Assembly (NCBI RefSeq): GCF_004010195.1
Contig: NC_057718.1
Span: forward strand, 81,896,110-81,919,025
Reading direction: 5' to 3'
Length of the DNA stretch: 22,916 nucleotides
Origin: Chiloscyllium plagiosum
Lineage: Eukaryota
The position numbers and the translations under genes are program-made. Positions 1,560-22,916 of this stretch are shown here, piece after piece. Every line of letters begins with the position of its first letter. Positions within the stretch are counted from its first letter, which is position 1. The notes beneath the pieces were generated by a model. It was given only the letters and a program-made list of their open reading frames with translations, was not told the origin of the DNA and made no database searches.

Positions 1560-2655
1560 CTCTAGGTAGATTAGATCAAATGCTGTACCATCACCAATCC
1601 CCCTTTGTTGCCTCCTGAAACAAATTCAATCAATTTAGTGAACGACAACCATCCCTAAGAAATCCCTGCTAACTGCCCTTCATTAATTTGTGCCTTTCCA
1701 AATGGCTGTGTATACTATCACGGGATTGTTTCTTTCTCAGAATGTTACACTGATTAGTCTGTAATTAGAAGAGTTTGTTTTGTTCTCCATTTTTAAACAA
1801 TGGCATAACAGTAGCTGTTATTCAATGCTTTTTGCTAGAGAGGATTTGAGCAAGCTGGTCAGAGCTTCTGTTATTTCTTTGCTTGCTTCTCTTAGTAGTG
1901 TGGGTGTTTTTCATCTAAGCCTTGTGATTTATCCACTTTCATGGAAGCTAAATACCTTAATATTACCTCTGTCGCTATATTTTTGCCATCCAATATTTCA
2001 CACTTCCTCAACAAGTATGCACTATCCTCCTTTTTTATGAAAATAATTGAAAAGCATCCCTTAAGGAATGTGCCCATGTTTTCTGCCCCTACACACAAGT
2101 TACCTTTCTGGTTTCTAATTAGACCTATTCTTTCCTTGGTAATTCCCTTGCTCTTAATGTATTCATAATTTGTTTGGTTTGGTTTCCCGTGATACTAATT
2201 GCCAATGGCTTTTATGTACCTTCTTCTACTTTCCTAGTTTCATATTTAATTTCACCCTTAGAATTTCCATTCTTGTCTAAGACTTTCACAGTGACTCACA
2301 CAAGCCTTTTTTTTACTGTTATATCCTACTGTGTATACTGTTTGACATCCAAGAGGGTCTAGACTTGGAGTCCGTTCCTTTTCCTTATGGGAATGCATAA
2401 GTTCTGTATACTCTTTACCTCTGTTTTAAATGCTTTCTGCTGGCCTAACATCAATTTACCTTCAAGTAGTTGTTTCCAGTACATTTTGCTAAATTGCCTT
2501 TTCCCTTACAAAAGTTGGCATTCCTTTGATTGAGCATTTAGTCTTGGTCAGTTATTATCCTTCTCCAAACCACTCTAACTCTAACTGAATTATGATTACA
2601 AACCACTTAAATGCTCTCCTACTGATACCCCTTCCACATGTCCAGATTAATTCAC
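1560..2655 (-). mobile_element. CR1 LINE ORF2 fragment (endonuclease C-terminus to RT N-terminus), heavily decayed
   Basis: Minus-strand translation gives CR1-like motifs LASMKVDKSQGLD (cf. KVDKSPGPD), VMPLFK, NYRL and GFLR..SFTKLIEF (cf. QHGF..GKSCLTNLIEFFEEV); many stops/frameshifts. Confidence 0.8.
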
Positions 2656-5128: not shown

Positions 5129-5303
5129 ATATTATGCACACAAAACTGGACATCAATAAAGCACTGTACATTATCTGTAGCAGCAGGATAGTGGTCAAAC
5201 ACAATCTGTTATCTCACGGTCGGACATATCCCTTACTCCACAATTACCCTCGAGCCTAAGGTATCAACTTTAGTACAGTGAGGAGTTCTGGCGAGCATCT
5301 AGT

Positions 5304-5614
5304 TGATTAGATTCCCTACAGTGTGGAAACAGGCCCTTTGGCCCAACCAGTCCACACCGACCCTCTGAAGAGTAACCCACCCAGACCCATTTCCCTCTGA
5401 CTAATGCACCTAACACTATGGGCAATTTAGCATGGCCAATATACCTAACCGGCACATGTTTGGATTTGTGGGAGGAAACTGGAGCATCCAGAGGAAACCC
5501 ACGCAGGCACAGGGAGAACGTGCAAACTCCACACAGTCACCCGAGGCTGGAATCGAACCTGGGACCCAGGTGCTGTAATGCAGCAGTGCTAACCACTGAG
5601 CCACTGTGCCACCC
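5304..5614 (-). mobile_element. Full-length HE1-type tRNA-derived SINE
   Basis: Minus strand: A box TGGCTCAGTGG, B box GGTTCGATTCC, central conserved domain, LINE-like 3' tail; perfect 8-bp TSD CATCTAGT (5296-5303, 5615-5622). Confidence 0.95.
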
Positions 5615-7837: not shown

Positions 7838-8412
7838 TGTAATTTACTACTACTCCCCTACTATTATCAAATTATACTCTCATTCATCCACTTCCATTTA
7901 GAAATACTTTCATAGCCATCCCCCAGCCAATCAGGTTCACTCGCGTGATCGTCCCTGATGCTGAAGTCGATCACACCTACATTGTCCGGGGAAGTAGCAG
8001 AGCCAGAACTCATTTGCAGGGCCGCCCTGAAGGTAGGACACATCACACCTACATTGTCTTGTGGAATCACGGAGTCAGGAAATCATCGGTATAACAATTC
8101 CCCAGGATTAGGGCAATTACCTTTGCATTATCTCTGAGGATGATCTCATACCTACCTGGGGTAATGTGTGGTTATGGGAGAGTGGAGGTAGGGAGTGGCC
8201 AGAGTATCTGTGAGCATTACCAATTGATCCATATAAAGAGAATGTGATTTCCTTGCTCGGGGCCTCATTTTGACTCAACTTTGCATGACCAGTGAAGAGT
8301 GCCAGAGGGGTCACCTAGCTTATACAGGCTTTAATAAATTTTAACTGTTTGCAGAAGTTGGTGTGCATGCATTGAATCTCGTATGTGAGATTCTTGGGAA
8401 AAGAACCTAACA
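7838..8412 (+). mobile_element. Probable retroviral/LTR-element solo LTR
   Basis: CCAAT box 7927, 17-bp direct repeat 7970-7986/8042-8058, TATAAA 8232, AATAAA 8333, ends ..CCTAACA at 8412; candidate TG start 7838 but no TSD found so left boundary uncertain. Confidence 0.55.
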
Positions 8413-9529: not shown

Positions 9530-9923
9530 ACCCCACGTATATGTCAAATCCCCTCCTTTCACAATGATTGTCCTTTCTGCAACCCAATGCTTTGCCTACA
9601 ATCCCCACAACTGACTTCCCTAACCTCCCCACCACAATGAAAACCCTCCTTGACTTTCGGTGGATCAACGTGGAAGACTAATCATGGCCCTACTCCTAAT
9701 CAACATAAAAGAACAGCCCTAACTATTGAGTGACTGGAACCCTGAGTGATATCTGTGCAGGTCTGACCTACTTCTAACCCCTTGCCTAGTTGCACTGGAC
9801 CAGCAGGACAAAGACTGTGTCCAAGACTGTGTTTTTCAAATTTATATCAGGGAAATTATCAGGGCATGAGAGCAGAATTGGCTATGTAGGTTAAAGTATT
9901 GATCAATACAGAAGTAGCAGCAA

Positions 9924-10638
9924 GGTAAAAGCAATGACTGCAGATGCTGGAAACCAGATTCTGGATTAGAGTGGTGCTGGAAAAGCACGGCAGTTCAGAC
10001 AGCATCCGAGGAGCAGGGAAATCAACGTTCCAGGCAAAAGTCCTTCATCAGGAAAGAGGCAGAGTGCCTGAAGGGTGGAGAGATAAATGAGAAGAGGGTG
10101 GGGGTGGACTGGGGTGAGGTGGGGGAAGGGGAAATGAGGAAACTGGTGAAGTCAACATCGATGCCCTGGGGTTGAAGTGTTCTGAGGCGGAAGATGAGGT
10201 GTTCTTCCTCCAGGCGTCGGGTGATGAGGGAGCGGCGGTGAAGGAGGCCCAGGACCTCCATATCCTCGGATGAGTGGGAGGGGGAGTTGAAATGTTGGGC
10301 CACAGGGTGGTGTGGTTGATTGGTGTGGGTGTCCCAGAGATGTTCCCTAAAGCGCTCTTCTAGGAGGCGTCCAGTCTCCCCAATGTAGAGGAGACCGCAT
10401 CGGGAGCAACGGATACAGAAATGATATTGGTGGATGTGCAGGTAAAACTTTGATGGATGTGGAAGGCTCCTTTGGGGCCTTGGATGGAGGTGAGGGAGGA
10501 GGTGTGGGCACAGGTTTTGCAATTCCTGCGGTGGCAGGGGAAGGTGCCAGGACGGGAGGGTGGGTTGTTGGGGCATGGACCTGACCAGGTAGTCATGGAG
10601 GGAACGGTCTTTGCGGAAGGCTGAAAGGGGTGGGGAGT
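9924..10638 (-). mobile_element. Penelope-like element, 5'-truncated (GIY-YIG endonuclease + pseudo-LTR)
   Basis: ORFs GTFPCHRRNCKTC and CIRCSRCGLLYIGETGRLLEERFREHL..VAQHFN..RRLEEEHLIFRL; perfect 13-bp TSD GAAGTAGCAGCAA (9911-9923, 10639-10651). Confidence 0.93.
10020..10055 (-). ncRNA. Degenerate minimal hammerhead ribozyme motif in Penelope pLTR
   Basis: Minus strand CTGATGA-aGGAC-TTTT-GCCT-GGAAC-GTT; GAAA box mutated. Confidence 0.6.
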
Positions 10639-11100
10639 GAAGTAGCAGCAAACCTTTCTAGAGGATATTTCAGAACACACAAAATGATGCATTCCAAAAA
10701 AGTAAGAAAACTTTTAAGAGGTGGGCACATCATCTGTGATTAACTAACAATATTGAAGATAGCATCGAACTTAAAGGTAAAGCATACAATTGTGCAAAAT
10801 TGGTGGCAAGTCAGAAGATTGACAGAATATAAAAATGAGTAAAGAATGACCAAAACATTAATTAAGAAGGAAAAGTTGGAATATGAGAGAAAACTAGCCA
10901 GTAATTTAAGAACAGACAGAAAAGGTTTCTATAAATATTTTAAAAAAGAAAATAATTAACAAAGTGAATGTTGGTCCCATAGAAATTGGATATGGAGAAT
11001 TAATAAAGGAAAATAAAGATATGGTGTTTGAATTGAAAGATATTTTACTTCAGTCTTCTCTATAGAGGATACAAACACCATCCTGAAGCACTGTATACAG

Positions 11101-11291
11101 TCTCTTGCTCCTCGGATGCTGCCTGGCCTGCTGTGCTTTTCCAACACCACAATTTTCGACTCCATTAATCTTTGCAATGTGGACTGTATACAGTCTCACT
11201 GTATACAGTCCACATTGCAAAGATTAATGGAGTCAAAAATTGTGGTGTTGGAAAAGGACAGCAGGCCAGGCAGCATCCGAGGAGCAAGAGA
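11101..11291. repeat. 191-bp fold-back inverted repeat (94-bp arms, 3-nt loop)
   Basis: 11101-11194 is the reverse complement of 11198-11291 with 2 mismatches (11135, 11157); palindrome ACTGTATACAGT at 11090, 11183 and 11198. Confidence 0.97.
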
Positions 11292-12533
11292 ATCAACGTT
11301 TCGGGCATAAGTTCTTCATCAGGAATGTGGAGGGGGGCAGGAGCTGAGAGATTAATAGAGTGATGGTGGGGAGAAGGTAGGTGGGAAGGTGATAGGTGGA
11401 TGTAGGTGAAAGGTAATTGTGATAGGTCAAAGGGGAGAATGGAGTGGATGGTGGGAAGGAAGATGGACAGGTGAGACAGGTCAAGAGGGCAGTGCCGAGT
11501 TGGAGGCTTGGACCTGGGATGAGGTGGAGAGAGGGGAGATTTGGAAACTAGTGATGTCGATGTTGATGCCATGTAGCTGAAGACTCCTGAGGTGGAAGAT
11601 GAGGCATTCTTCCTCCAGTTGGTGGGTGGCCTGGATTTGGTGGTGGAGGAGGCCCAGGACTTGCATGTCCTTGAGGGAGTGGGAGGGGGATTTGAAGTTG
11701 TCGGCCACAAGACGGTGGGTTTGTATGGTGCATGTGTCCCAGAGATGTTCCCTGAAACATTCCACGAGTTGGCGTCCTCTCTCCCCAATCTAGAGGGGAC
11801 CACATCAAGAGCAATGGACACAGTAGATGAGATGGATGGGTGTGCAGGAAAATCTCTGTTGGATGTAAAAATATCCTTTGGGCCTTGGATGGAGGTGATG
11901 GGGAAGGTATGGGCGCAGATTTTACAGCTCGTGCAGCGGCAGGGGAAGAGTGTGGAGGGTGGGGTGGTAGGGAGAGTGGATCTAATGAGAAAGTTGGAGA
12001 GGGAATGGTCTCTGTGGAATGCAGATAAGAGTGGGAGGGAAACATATCTCTGCTGGTGGAGTCTGATTGTAGGTGGTGGAAATGGTAGAGGATAATACGC
12101 TGTATCCAGAGATTAGTGGGGTGCAAGGTGAGAACCGGGCGGTTCTATCCTTGTTGCGGTTGGAGGGGTGGGGTTTGGGAAGTAGAGGAGATGCTCTGGG
12201 GTGCATTGTTGATCACCTGGGAGGGGAAATTGCAGTCCTTAATATATGAGGCCATCTGGGATGTCCTGGAGTGGAATTGCTCCTCCTGGGAGCAGATACG
12301 GTGAAGGCGGAGGAATTGGGAGTAAGGGGTCACATTTTTACAGGAGAGGGTGTAGCCAAGGTAGCTATGGGAGTCGGCAGGTTTGAGGTAGATGTCCATG
12401 TTGAGTCGATAGTTGGAATTAGACATGGAGAGGTCCAGGAAGGGGAAGGAGGTGTCAAACATGGACCATGTGAACTTAAGGTCAGGGTGGAAGGTGTTGG
12501 TGAATTTGGTGAACTGTTCAATCTCCTTGTGGA
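11230..12533 (-). mobile_element. Penelope-like element (RT C-terminus, GIY-YIG, pLTR), decayed
   Basis: ORF FTNTFHPDLKFTWS..FPFLDL..DIYLKPADSHSYL..PYSQFLRLHRICS and FREHLWDT..LEEECLIFHL; pLTR similar to 9924-10055 and 19125-19548. Confidence 0.92.
11291..11327 (-). ncRNA. Minimal hammerhead ribozyme motif in Penelope pLTR (core boxes intact, stem II damaged)
   Basis: Minus strand ATTC-CTGATGA-aGAAC-TTAT-GCCC-GAAAC-GTT-GATT. Confidence 0.7.
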
Positions 12534-12694
12534 GTTGGTTGAATTTGAGCCCCAGGTAATATCTAAGGGTCAAATTAGATGATGACATGTGTCCACTTTT
12601 TGATCCTTTGGTATCAGCTCTTGTGAAGCAGAATTCAGCAAATATTGGATTGTTTGCCCATTCACAGGGAACGTGAGCTGGGATGAGACCATTT

Positions 12695-12890
12695 TAGGAT
12701 GTGGAATGTGCTGTCTAGGAGTACAGTACGGTAGATTCAATAATGGTCTTCAGAAAAAAATAGGATAATTATCTGAAGAAAACATTTTTGCAGAGATTAC
12801 AATGAAAGGCAGACAGGAGAGATTACATGAATTGCTCTTGTAGAGAGCCAGCACAGATAATGATTGGCTAAAAAATTCTATAATTTAAAA
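12695..12890 (+). mobile_element. Old CR1 LINE 3' end fragment
   Basis: ATGTGGAATG..GATTCAATAATGGTCTTCAGAAAA..GGATAATTATCTGAAG..GAATTGCTCTTGTAGAGAGCCAGCACAGA resembles CR1 ORF2 end and 3' UTR. Confidence 0.55.
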
Positions 12891-13439
12891 GGCCAGACAC
12901 ACAACCTGAGAGCAAGAGAATTTTAAAGAATTTAAATTATTGCAAAGTGTTTGTGAAGTACTCAGGAGTGTACAGGGAGTATAAGTAGGCCTTCATTCAA
13001 CGTTGCCTTGTTTTCATTATTTCATTTTAACATTAAGTTAAAGGAGTCTGTAATCTCATTGAGCTTACTGAAATTCATTTTTTTCATCTCACTATCAGCA
13101 TGACCATGCAGCCTCTGTCACTCTTTAACTATCTGACTTCCAGCCCCTCACAATATTGGACCCTCTGACCTGCTTTCTCCCCCCAATAGTAAACTGAGGT
13201 ACTCCTCGTCCATCAGCAATGCCTACCTCTAGTGGTTCATCCATGTATCCCAGGGGTGTTCTGAGTTATTTACTGAAGAGAAATGGCAAGGAAAAGAGAT
13301 ATGAGTCTCTGGTCATCCCTGACTGGTTTTCTACTAACTTGGGTAAAGATAAGAAAACAGTTCCACTGTAAGTAGCTGGGGTTCTTTCTCTAACTCTACT
13401 ATGTATTACTGTGAAGCTGAACCCCACACTGTTACAGAG

Positions 13440-13763
13440 TTAGATTAGATTCCTACAGTATGGAAACAGGCCCTTTGGCCCAACAAGTCCACACTGACTC
13501 TCCAAAGAGTAACTCACCCAGAGCCATTCCTGTACCCTATATTTAAACCTGACTAATGCACCTAACAATATGGGCAATTTAGCATAGTCAATTCACCTGA
13601 CCAGCACATCTTTGGACTATGGGAGGAAACTGGAGCACCCAGAGGCAATCCACGCAGACGTGGGGAGAATGTACAAACTCCACACAGTCACCCAAGGTGA
13701 GAATTGAACCTGGGTCCCTGGTGCTATGAGGCAGCAGTGCTAACTACTGAGCCACCATGCTGC
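13440..13763 (-). mobile_element. Full-length HE1-type tRNA-derived SINE
   Basis: Collinear with 5304-5614 over its whole length; (TAGAT)n tail; A box TGGCTCAGTAG, B box GGTTCAATTCT; no clear TSD. Confidence 0.95.
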
Positions 13764-19124: not shown

Positions 19125-19548
19125 ATTCTCATCTTCTGCCTTGGGATCCTCCAACCTCATGGCATCAATGTGGATTTCATCAGTTTCCTCAGCTCCCCTA
19201 CCCCCAACTTATCCCAGATCCAACCCTTCAACTTGGCACTGCCCTCATGACCTGTCCTGTCGATCTTCCTTCCCACCTATTCGCTCCACCCTCAGCTCCA
19301 ACCTATGACCATCACCCCCACCTGCATCTGCCTATTGCCTCCCTAGCTACCTTGCCCCATAGTCCCACCCCCCCCCTCCTATTTATCTCTCAGCACCATT
19401 GGCAACCCCACCCCCCATGTTTCTGATGAAGGGCTTATTCCCAAAACGCCGACTCTTCTGCTCCCTAGATGCTACATGACCGGCTGTGCTTTTCCAGCAC
19501 CATACTTTTTGACTCTGATCTCCAGCAACTGCCGTCCTCACTTTCTCC
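19125..19548 (+). mobile_element. Penelope-like element 3' fragment inserted in Gypsy gag
   Basis: LIFCLGILQPHGINVDF then pLTR with hammerhead-like CTGATGA-aGGGC-TTAT-TCCC-AAAAC-GCC (19423-19450); 14-bp TSD TGATATCCTCCTGC/TGATATCCTTCAGC (19111-19124, 19549-19562, 12/14). Confidence 0.9.
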
Positions 19549-20277
19549 TGATATCCTTCAGCTCCTGCCCTTTGATTGTCATTGTTATTTGGACCTGTAG
19601 TATCTATTAGCATTATGCAATGCCTGGTCAATTCTGCCACAAATATGCTCTTGCTGCTTAACATTTCTGTACATGTCAATTCATTTTCTGAGAGAAAGTC
19701 TCTCCTTTCTCAACAGATGTGCTCTCATTGTGGGATCTCTTATGCTGTCTTTAATTAGATTATTTTTCTGTTGAATAAATGCACAGGATTTTGCAGGCTG
19801 ATTAATGCAGCCATGTGTTGATCAATGCACTCTTTTTTCACTTTGGGCTCCAATACTAAGCACATTTCATTCATAAGTTACATTCATTAAGGTTTAAACC
19901 ATGCACCGAAGTTTTCAAAATTTCTGCAATCTTTTCAATCCATTAGGCAAATGTAGGATGGAGTATAATTTGAAACAGTCTCTTTCCAGCAGTGATTGGA
20001 GCCTATCCATAGCTTGTTAAGCAAACCTGTTGCAATTTCACAATTTTGATGGTGCACACATGGAAATGTAATCAATTCTGCTTCATATTACATATCATTT
20101 TGACCAGAGATGGGAGAGGACAGGTTGCAGCCATTGTGTTGGACCTAGTGCTTCAGCTATGATTTATTTTTTAGATCATTTTTATTTATTTTGGTTTAAT
20201 TTATTTTGGTTGCTTGTTCCTGCTCGCAGCCTGAAGTATTCCATATCTGTGGTTTTTTTATAGCTTTTCAGCACTCA

Positions 20278-20423: not shown

Positions 20424-20523
20424 TTGGTGCAGGTTGCATTTCTATCCAGATGACTGAAAAACATTTCCCCACCAGGTCCCATTTTCTCAACTATCAAACA
20501 ACCAGGTTTCCAGGGAGAACAAG
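20424..20523 (+). mobile_element. RTE LINE segment 3
   Basis: QMTEKHFP/HQVPFSQLSNNQVSR resembles RTE RM...RLP.Q..(Y/F)S.L..G.R following the QLRW motif of segment 2. Confidence 0.6.
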
Positions 20524-22075
20524 CAGGAGACTGGAAGAACACAGCAAGCCACGCAGCATCAGGAGGTGGAGAAATCAACATTTTGGATGTAACCCTTTTT
20601 CAGGACTGAGGGTGGGTGGAAGGGGAGCTGCAGATAAACAGAGTGGCAGGGGCAGGGTGATGAAGTGGGGATAGGTGAACAATGGGAGGAATGAATCCGA
20701 TTGGTGCTGGAAGGAAGGGCCGATGAGAGGAATGGAAGGGAGGGGGAGGGGCTGGGAAAGGGGTACTGCATCCCAGGCTGAATTGGACCAGTTCATCAAC
20801 TTTGCCGATAACTTCCACGCCACCCTCAAATTCACTTTGTTCATATTGGACACCTCCCTCCCCTTTCTTGACCTCTCCATTTCCAGTGACAGTTTCCAGA
20901 TGGACATTTATTCTAAATACTCACAACTACCTGGAGTACACCTTCTTCCACCCAGTATCCTGCATGAACTCCATCTCATTCTCCCAATTTCTCTGCCACT
21001 GCCACATCTACTCGGATGAGAAGACATTCCATTCCCTGCATCCCAAATGGCCACCTATTTTGAACAACGTGCTTTCCCCCCTCTGTCATATAGACAGCCT
21101 TCACACACCACCTCCATTCCCCATTCCATTGCTCTAACCCCCCCAACACAATAAAGATAGAGACCCCTTGTCCTCACTACCACCCCACCAGTCTCCACAT
21201 CCAACACATCATCCTTAAACACTTCTGCCAACTTCAACTAGATCCCACCATCAAGAACGTCGTCCCCTCCCCATCCCCTCTGTCTTTTGCAAGGACTGTT
21301 CCCTTTGAAAGTCCTTGGTTCATCCCACTCTCCCCACCAAACCCCACTCCCCAACCCCCAACCCTCAGGTACCTTCCCCTGCAACTGGAAAAGATCCAAA
21401 ACCTGCCATCACACCAAGCCCCCTCACTTCCATCCAGGTCCCCAGGTGAGTCAGAGATTCAGCTGTCTCTCCTCCAACCGAGTTTACTGCATCAGGTGCT
21501 CCCGATGTGGTCTTCTCTCCATCAGTGAGACCAAATGTAAAATAAGGGAATGTTTTGCCCACAGGGGCCGACCGGATCTCCCAATCACCACCCATTTTAA
21601 TTTTGCTTCCCACTCCCTTTCCGACATGACTATCCTTTGTCTCCTCCATTGCCACAACGAATCACACCTCAACATTGGAGGACCAACACCTCATATTCCG
21701 CTTGGGCAGCCTACAGCCCAAAGGACTCAACATTGAGTTGTCCAATTTCAAATAAGCTCCATTTCCTTCCCCAGCCCCTCCCCTTCCCCTCCATTCCTCT
21801 CAACAACCCTTCCTTCCAGCCACAAACTGGATTCATTCCTCCCATCGATCAACCAGGTTATACCCTCTACCTGTGTTCACCTATCCCCACCTTACCCCCT
21901 GCACCCCTCACCCTCTTTAGCTGCAGTTCCTCTTACGCCACCCCCAGTCCTGAAGAAGGGTTACACCCAAAACAATGAGTTCTCCACATCCCAATACTGC
22001 CTGGCTTACTGTGTTCATCCAGTCTCCTGCTTGTTTACCTTGGATTCCAGCTTCTGCCGTTATTTTTGTATCTAA
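20518..22075 (+). mobile_element. Penelope-like element (second family) with inverted 5' pseudo-LTR
   Basis: 20518-20762 is an inverted copy of 21770-22035; body has SQAELDQFINFADNFHATLKFT..LPFLDL, GTFPCNWKRSKTC, VYCIRCSRCGLLSISETK; flanked by TTCCAGGGAGAACAAG/TTCTAGGGAGAACAAG (20508-20523, 22082-22097). Confidence 0.92.
21946..21980 (+). ncRNA. Degenerate minimal hammerhead ribozyme motif (second Penelope family); inverted sister copy at 20573-20607
   Basis: AGTC-CTGAAGA-aGGGT-TAC-ACCC-AAAAC; stem II perfect, GAAA box and cleavage triplet mutated. Confidence 0.6.
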
Positions 22076-22527: not shown

Positions 22528-22613
22528 GATTTGACAAAAAAATGTACAATACTTCTACTGCATTTTTAACAAAGTATTATACAGAGAACATTCTGTATTT
22601 TATTTCTTGCTTG

Positions 22614-22916
22614 TATACTTAAGAGGGAAATCAGGAGGGCAAAAAAGGGGACATGAGATAGCTTTGGCAAATAGAATTAAGGAGAATCCAAAGGGTGTTT
22701 ACAAATATATTAAGGACAAAAGGGTAACTAAGGAGAGAATAGAGCCTCTCAAAAATCAGCAAGGCTGCCTTTGTGTGGAGCCGCAGAAAATGGGGGAGAT
22801 ACTAAATGAGTATTTTGCACCAGTATTTACTGTGGAGAAGGATATGGAGGATATAGACTGTAGGGAAATAGATGGTGACATCTTGCAAAATGTCCAGATT
22901 ACAGAGGAGGAAGTGC
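22614..22916 (+). mobile_element. Relatively young 5'-truncated CR1 LINE ORF2, runs off window
   Basis: ILKREIRRAK / GHEIALANRIKENPKGVYKYIKDKRVTKERIEPLKNQQGCLCVEPQKMGEILNEYFAPVFTVEKD; one frameshift in an A run. Confidence 0.92.

Follow-up and report, generated by a model that had tools for sequence, protein, structure and literature searches.

In their usual form, as two papers describe it, Penelope insertions have an inverted copy joined to the element's 5' end, and only one of their ends bears a tail (PMC8557442, PMC3846280). Against this head-to-head arrangement, Arkhipova et al. set a tail-to-tail product of 3' self-priming on a sense template, as outlined in the portion of their paper available to us (PMC3846280). 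Inverted repeats are also a product of mutation at the level of DNA. The template switches catalogued in apes copy fragments with a median of 12 nt and a maximum of 128 nt, according to the sections accessible in that study (Walker et al. 2021, PMC7954356), and the available text of PMC2943611 attributes complex local insertions of several rounds, as well as snap-back inverted repeats, to synthesis-dependent end joining.

We have analysed a 22,916-nt stretch of DNA (the window) in which a near-perfect fold-back lies at the 3' end of a decayed Penelope-like element. In our assessment it is probably a one-off, DNA-templated snap-back duplication that took place long after the Penelope insertion. 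The locus is undescribed in the literature searched, where Penelope, tail-to-tail and self-priming occur together in one paper.

Structure of the fold-back

The fold-back measures 191 nt and consists of two 94-nt arms around a CTC loop, with two mismatches between the arms, 11135/11257 and 11157/11235 (Table 1). A 12-nt palindrome is found at 11090, 11183 and 11198. Together with the adjacent CTC it makes up a 15-nt unit with copies at 11090 and 11183, and a 14-bp direct repeat has its copies at 11089 and 11197. In each arm 62 nt are pLTR, and the remaining 32 nt could not be aligned to the four other pLTR ends of the window. An earlier note on this DNA had reported 94-bp arms with a 3-nt loop and two mismatches, a triple palindrome, a 14-bp repeat and a unit occurring twice, and about 60 nt of pLTR plus about 32 nt of private sequence per arm; the same anatomy was recovered here from the sequence.

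Table 1. Features of the fold-back and its surroundings, in window coordinates
Feature	Position	Strand	Remark
Left flank, degenerate LINE (CR1-like) coding fragment	10642..11089	+	Orthologue in organism B
First 15-nt unit (12-nt palindrome + CTC)	11090..11104	+	Last 4 bases are a microhomology with the pLTR
Left arm, putative new copy in inverse orientation (62 nt pLTR, 20 nt filler, palindrome)	11101..11194	+	Family base at both mismatches
Palindrome-CTC-palindrome, fold-back centre, putative self-priming hairpin	11183..11209	.	12-bp stem, 3-nt loop
Right arm, putative template	11198..11291	+	Runs on into the Penelope copy
20-nt non-Penelope filler, where the tail would be	11210..11229	+	Partly resembles 11349-11361
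GAGA microhomology, putative end of back-copy and re-annealing site	11288..11291	+	First of 9 such 4-mers in 11210-11600
Predicted minimal hammerhead motif	11295..11322	-	CUGAUGA 11322-11316, GAAAC 11302-11298, triplet GUU 11297-11295
Decayed, 5'-truncated Penelope-like element, 3' part of reading frame + pLTR, tailless	11230..12520 (end approximate)	-	
Junction between the Penelope copy's 5' end and the right flank	12475..12900	+	Common to organisms A and B

The arrangement is tail-to-tail, with the two element 3' ends facing each other. Folded as DNA, the structure reaches -117.9 kcal/mol (z -25.4), a value equalled by none of 200 shuffles, and the central 27-mer by itself forms a hairpin of -9.9 kcal/mol with DNA parameters. 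Exact matches to the 25-nt junction motif were absent from the metagenome contigs.

The element that hosts the fold-back aligns at 74% to the copy at 10105-10641. A frame of that paralog (10022-10657) has a weak Pfam match to GIY-YIG (E 0.0039, below the cut-off) and an atlas score of 0.96 to clusters in which 13-26% of the members carry GIY-YIG; the frames of the fold-back's own copy gave no Pfam match. A degenerate pLTR motif found no match in viral, metagenome or prokaryote contigs. The usual Penelope tail is missing at the fold-back, as the earlier note had pointed out. This is not peculiar to the locus: the tail is absent at two of the five pLTR ends of the window, this one included, and is described as optional in the accessible part of PMC11167929.

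The left flank, which we take to be CR1, matches over 10759-11067 a relative of the CR1-like fragment that closes the window (tblastn, E 2.6e-4), and this gives weak support to the CR1 host named in the earlier note. The best relative of that closing LINE fragment is named from a bamboo shark, in line with a shark-like genome. Continuation of CR1 into the filler is unsupported: the tblastn alignments to four relatives end at 11067, and the organism-B contigs stop too soon after 11090 to show it. Beyond the element, 12690-12870 shares the strand of the left flank and presumably resembles a degenerate CR1 3' end. CR1 may thus resume there, contrary to the earlier note, but the alignment does no better than shuffles (the scores against two other CR1-like ends in the window were reached by 94 and 55 of 200). 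Depth in the run contigs is mildly raised at 12768-12848. The filler or the palindrome may derive from the element's tail, which it resembles by eye. A scan of 26 frames detected no host gene, and four of these frames had Pfam matches, all below the cut-off.

Comparison with organism B

The age of the fold-back was approached through contigs from 4 of 24 runs, DNA-type or unlabelled: X1, X7 and two organism-B runs. The comparison did not extend to organism C, to the first study's second individual or to two runs of raw RNA. The word shares of runs in organism A (0.37-0.87) were not counted as evidence.

The 5' junction of the element is covered by contigs of X1 (12479-12900, 2 differences) and of one organism-B run, X11 (12475-12900, 28 differences and 12 gaps). 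The junction is common to A and B, and therefore the element predates the split between them. At 12693 and 12701 the letters of the X1 contig agree with those of organism B but not with those of the window, where there is either an error of the assembly or a second allele.

At the 3' end, the organism-B contigs align from 10612 and 10616, with 24 and 23 differences (about 5%), and in both runs the match ends at 11090 with 35 further letters over. At the other end of the flank contigs extend by 26-47 nt into the repeat next to it, so that in organism B a high-copy repeat probably starts within a few bases of 11090; most simply, this repeat would probably be the element's own end. The earlier note had looked to the orthologous locus for the unduplicated allele. 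Organism B lacks the fold-back at this site, as such an allele would, but it lacks the palindrome as well and is hence not the immediate precursor.

The arms themselves carry a second line of evidence. Over 50 ungapped pLTR bases they differ from each other at one position, against 11 and 8 differences from the two window paralogs, and they share three changes against both paralogs, at 11105, 11126 and 11144. Part of these shared changes could be subfamily letters, and arms so closely spaced could have been homogenised later, which would conceal their age. The arms diverge at 2/90, against 4.8-6.6% between A and B, and this difference falls short of significance (P 0.06-0.18). Organism B may also have lost the fold-back, instead of organism A having gained it. 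We nevertheless regard the fold-back as probably younger than the Penelope insertion and lineage-specific.

A probable snap-back duplication

Removal of 11090-11182 leaves the flank, palindrome-CTC-palindrome, the 20-nt filler and the element. From this reconstructed precursor, a single switch-and-return places 601 of 601 positions in register, the two arm mismatches being the only differences, although the precursor is derived from the product and the fit is thus partly built in. The rebuild uses a 90-nt reversed fragment for a gain of 93, with homologies of 4 nt at one switch and 12 nt at the other. Rebuilding without a prior tandem needs two untemplated letters and has 2-nt homology, and the 14-bp bracket of the earlier note likewise requires two untemplated letters.

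The sequence of events would be as follows. The junction between the 3' end and the flank would have been rebuilt in the organism A lineage, probably at a break, with 47 nt of new sequence that included two copies of the 12-nt palindrome 3 nt apart. A minus-strand 3' end bearing the palindrome pair could then fold into a 12-bp hairpin (palindrome-GAG-palindrome) and prime its own extension, and the polymerase would back-copy the filler and then the pLTR. Release at the first GAGA, re-annealing on the GAGA beside the palindrome and synthesis on into the flank would duplicate the 15-nt unit and give the net gain of 93 nt. The right arm would later have taken two substitutions. We infer the precursor, the direction of change and the enzyme, and the four steps may represent one repair event.

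Snap-back synthesis-dependent end joining starts from a double-strand break and requires polymerase theta. The locus has sequence marks of this pathway, namely a hairpin-forming primer repeat with a 12-bp stem and a 4-nt microhomology at the re-joining, and the back-copy passes three shorter GAG sites before it reaches GAGA. It can equally be written in the four-point form of a template switch, the product being the left part, the reverse complement of a nearby fragment and the right part of the reconstructed precursor. Break repair and a replication template switch are indistinguishable by sequence. The filler matches 11349-11361 at 12 of 13 positions, which 5 of 200 shuffles do as well, and this is a modest hint that the precursor may itself have been a repair patchwork. 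The earlier note proposed iterative switching at a self-priming palindrome; switching finds support here, and one event suffices for the 93-nt insert, whereas the 47 nt from which it started may have taken one round or several.

A possible RNA-templated route

The same final sequence would, by reasoning, also be reached by reverse transcription in cis, a route we consider unlikely. A read-through RNA of this copy, cut by the hammerhead, would serve as template; a nicked minus-strand end would anneal to it via the palindrome, and the cDNA would run off the cut 5' end and be joined at GAGA after trimming of 3 nt. The 15-nt unit would then be a target-site duplication. Tail-to-tail orientation with a palindrome at the joint is the product expected from 3' self-priming on a sense template, as far as the available text of PMC3846280 goes, and the inverted copy, bracketed by the 15-nt repeat, begins 3 nt past the predicted cut.

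The cleavage triplet is numbered here by established hammerhead convention. The CUGAUGA and GAAAC boxes stand in register in the pLTR of the host copy, and a ribozyme is predicted. Stem II of this copy has two substitutions in four pairs relative to the family, of uncertain date, which weighs against the route. Rfam returned no hammerhead family match up to E 1, and for three copies the hammerhead fold did not emerge from plain energy folding. The earlier note placed the end of the arm 2 nt from the triplet; it is indeed close, and we count 3 nt (11294-11292). The switch point lies inside the microhomology 11288-11291, which puts the end point 3-6 nt from the predicted cut. This proximity needs no ribozyme, because GAGA is the first 4-nt microhomology met and stem II is broken.

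Published data and the state of the copy also speak against RNA templating. According to the accessible part of PMC4209133, a minimal hammerhead on its own did not cleave itself in vitro, and for an anole Penelope-like element no RNA reads beginning or ending at the hammerhead cut are reported in the sections available from PMC11167929. The copy at the fold-back is also truncated at its 5' end, and the 26 frames scanned revealed no host gene. If the RNA route were true, the locus would preserve in nature the predicted tail-to-tail, sense-primed product and would testify in the genome to in vivo cleavage by a minimal hammerhead; further tail-to-tail fold-backs, with ends just 3' of the cut site, would then be expected as a class. 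This would matter for whether Penelope hammerheads cut in vivo, since the anole study saw no reads that end at the site.

A possible insertion intermediate

The earlier note also raised the possibility of a Penelope insertion intermediate. In such a frozen intermediate the arms and the filler would have been laid down at insertion and later kept alike by conversion, the filler being carried-over flank; we hold both the origin and this source of the filler to be rather improbable, slightly more so than the RNA route. The fold-back does sit exactly at the element's 3' end, and inverted pLTRs with palindromic joints are common in these elements, as described in the available parts of PMC3846280 and PMC8557442. 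However, organism B shares the 5' junction of the element and lacks both the palindrome and the fold-back, the contigs of both its runs stopping at 11090, and the arms share private changes; because of this the fold-back is probably no insertion intermediate, with later homogenisation still a possible reason for the likeness of the arms. The orientation also argues against it: two 3' ends face each other, whereas the canonical pair in the window, at 20500-22060, is head-to-head. Similar structures at other Penelope ends, which the earlier note took as bearing on this idea, were found at none of the four other pLTR ends of the window, where the longest stems are 10-12 bp.

The head-to-head insertion at 20500-22060 belongs to a second Penelope family. 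A short, tailless inverted copy is joined there to a tailed copy of 1.3 kb; the pair, of the type made at insertion, is only 82% complementary over 116 nt, well below the arms of the fold-back, which favours a later date for the latter, although the families differ and the arms of the pair are 1.3 kb apart. Two further 5'-truncated Penelope copies, both tailed, are located at 9920-10641 and 19128-19550. The junction at 10641 is crossed by contigs of X1, X9 and X11 and is therefore common to organisms A and B.

The fold-back in sequencing runs and as a possible hairpin RNA

The fold-back is real. A 523-nt contig of X1 equals 10608-11130 with no differences and thereby crosses the left junction: it runs through the flank and the palindrome and enters the inverted arm by 30 nt, at a depth of 10.9, which corresponds to single copy (other exact pieces, 11.5-13.2). 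A stop 30 nt into a repeat is to be expected from words of 31 letters. The left arm keeps the family base at both mismatches: 11135 agrees with four of four paralogs, and 11157 belongs to a family-consensus CpG. One right-arm mismatch is CpG decay. Ageing would account for this pattern better than errors in the reads.

For an assembly or chimeric-read error it can be said that long reads are known to yield fold-back chimeras, and that, of about 154,800 pieces, the 32 listed do not include the hairpin centre. X1, the sole confirming run, is possibly the assembly's own sample, and X7, from another study, has no exact piece beyond 10978 among the pieces listed. Against the exact, single-copy contig over the left junction and the family bases of the left arm, we regard such an error as very improbable.

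Equally improbable is a selected hairpin that would yield anti-Penelope small RNAs or a new microRNA: the minus strand as RNA is predicted to fold at -185.1 kcal/mol (z -27.2), and template switches have made new primate microRNA hairpins according to the accessible part of bioRxiv 10.1101/2023.04.19.537475, but the structure is missing from organism B's orthologous site, the scan for a host gene was negative, and the five Rfam microRNA family matches, all far below the gathering score, reflect generic pairing. The run search listed no RNA holder, which has no bearing on expression. As the sequence is able to fold, the cruciform, dsRNA or siRNA effects suggested in the earlier note may occur.

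Other features of the window

Three repeat copies at 5301-5609, 13438-13760 and 24-145, which we take to be SINE-like, are 74-82% alike. The first two start beside short pieces that resemble CR1-like 3' ends. LINE coding fragments at 1833-2241 (minus strand) and 22600-22916 (plus strand) match the same relatives. A direct repeat of 37 nt at 7970-8078 has a spacing of 72 nt; its copies are 76% alike and identical in the first 17 bases.

Comparison with known systems

With the inverted-pLTR units of endonuclease-bearing Penelope-like elements, as presented in the available parts of PMC3846280 and PMC8557442, the fold-back has in common an inverted pLTR, a palindromic joint and one tailless end. 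It differs from them in being tail-to-tail instead of head-to-head and, probably, post-insertion, in arms that include non-element DNA, and in an inverted copy without the hammerhead core (PMC3846280, PMC8557442).

The resemblance to short-range template switches under the four-point model is closer. Both involve one switch-and-return, a nearby reverse complement, a new inverted repeat and a net gain, judging from the accessible text of PMC5453318 and PMC7954356. The 90-nt fragment lies inside the range given in the latter but far above its median of 12, and the ancestral state is here reconstructed rather than aligned. The locus also lies in repeats, whereas the human-chimp scan of Loytynoja and Goldman (2017), in the sections available, was made on unmasked sequence (PMC5453318).

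Snap-back or complex microhomology-mediated end joining, as described in the accessible part of Yu and McVey (2010), has hairpin-primed synthesis and re-annealing at a microhomology, both of which our model of the locus contains (PMC2943611). A filler that partly resembles nearby sequence is a further likeness, shared with this pathway and with the fold-backs of yeast (available text of PMC2943611 and PMC11724301). The yeast fold-back inverted duplications at breaks differ in size, being mostly 5-34 bp in the part of PMC11724301 available, and for our locus both the break and the polymerase are putative.

The fold-back is thus most likely a mutation scar of a known class, without known function. 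The stem includes part of a very abundant retroelement end and, as best explained, has little significance in itself. It stands as a clean, unusually long case of a known one-step route to a near-perfect hairpin.
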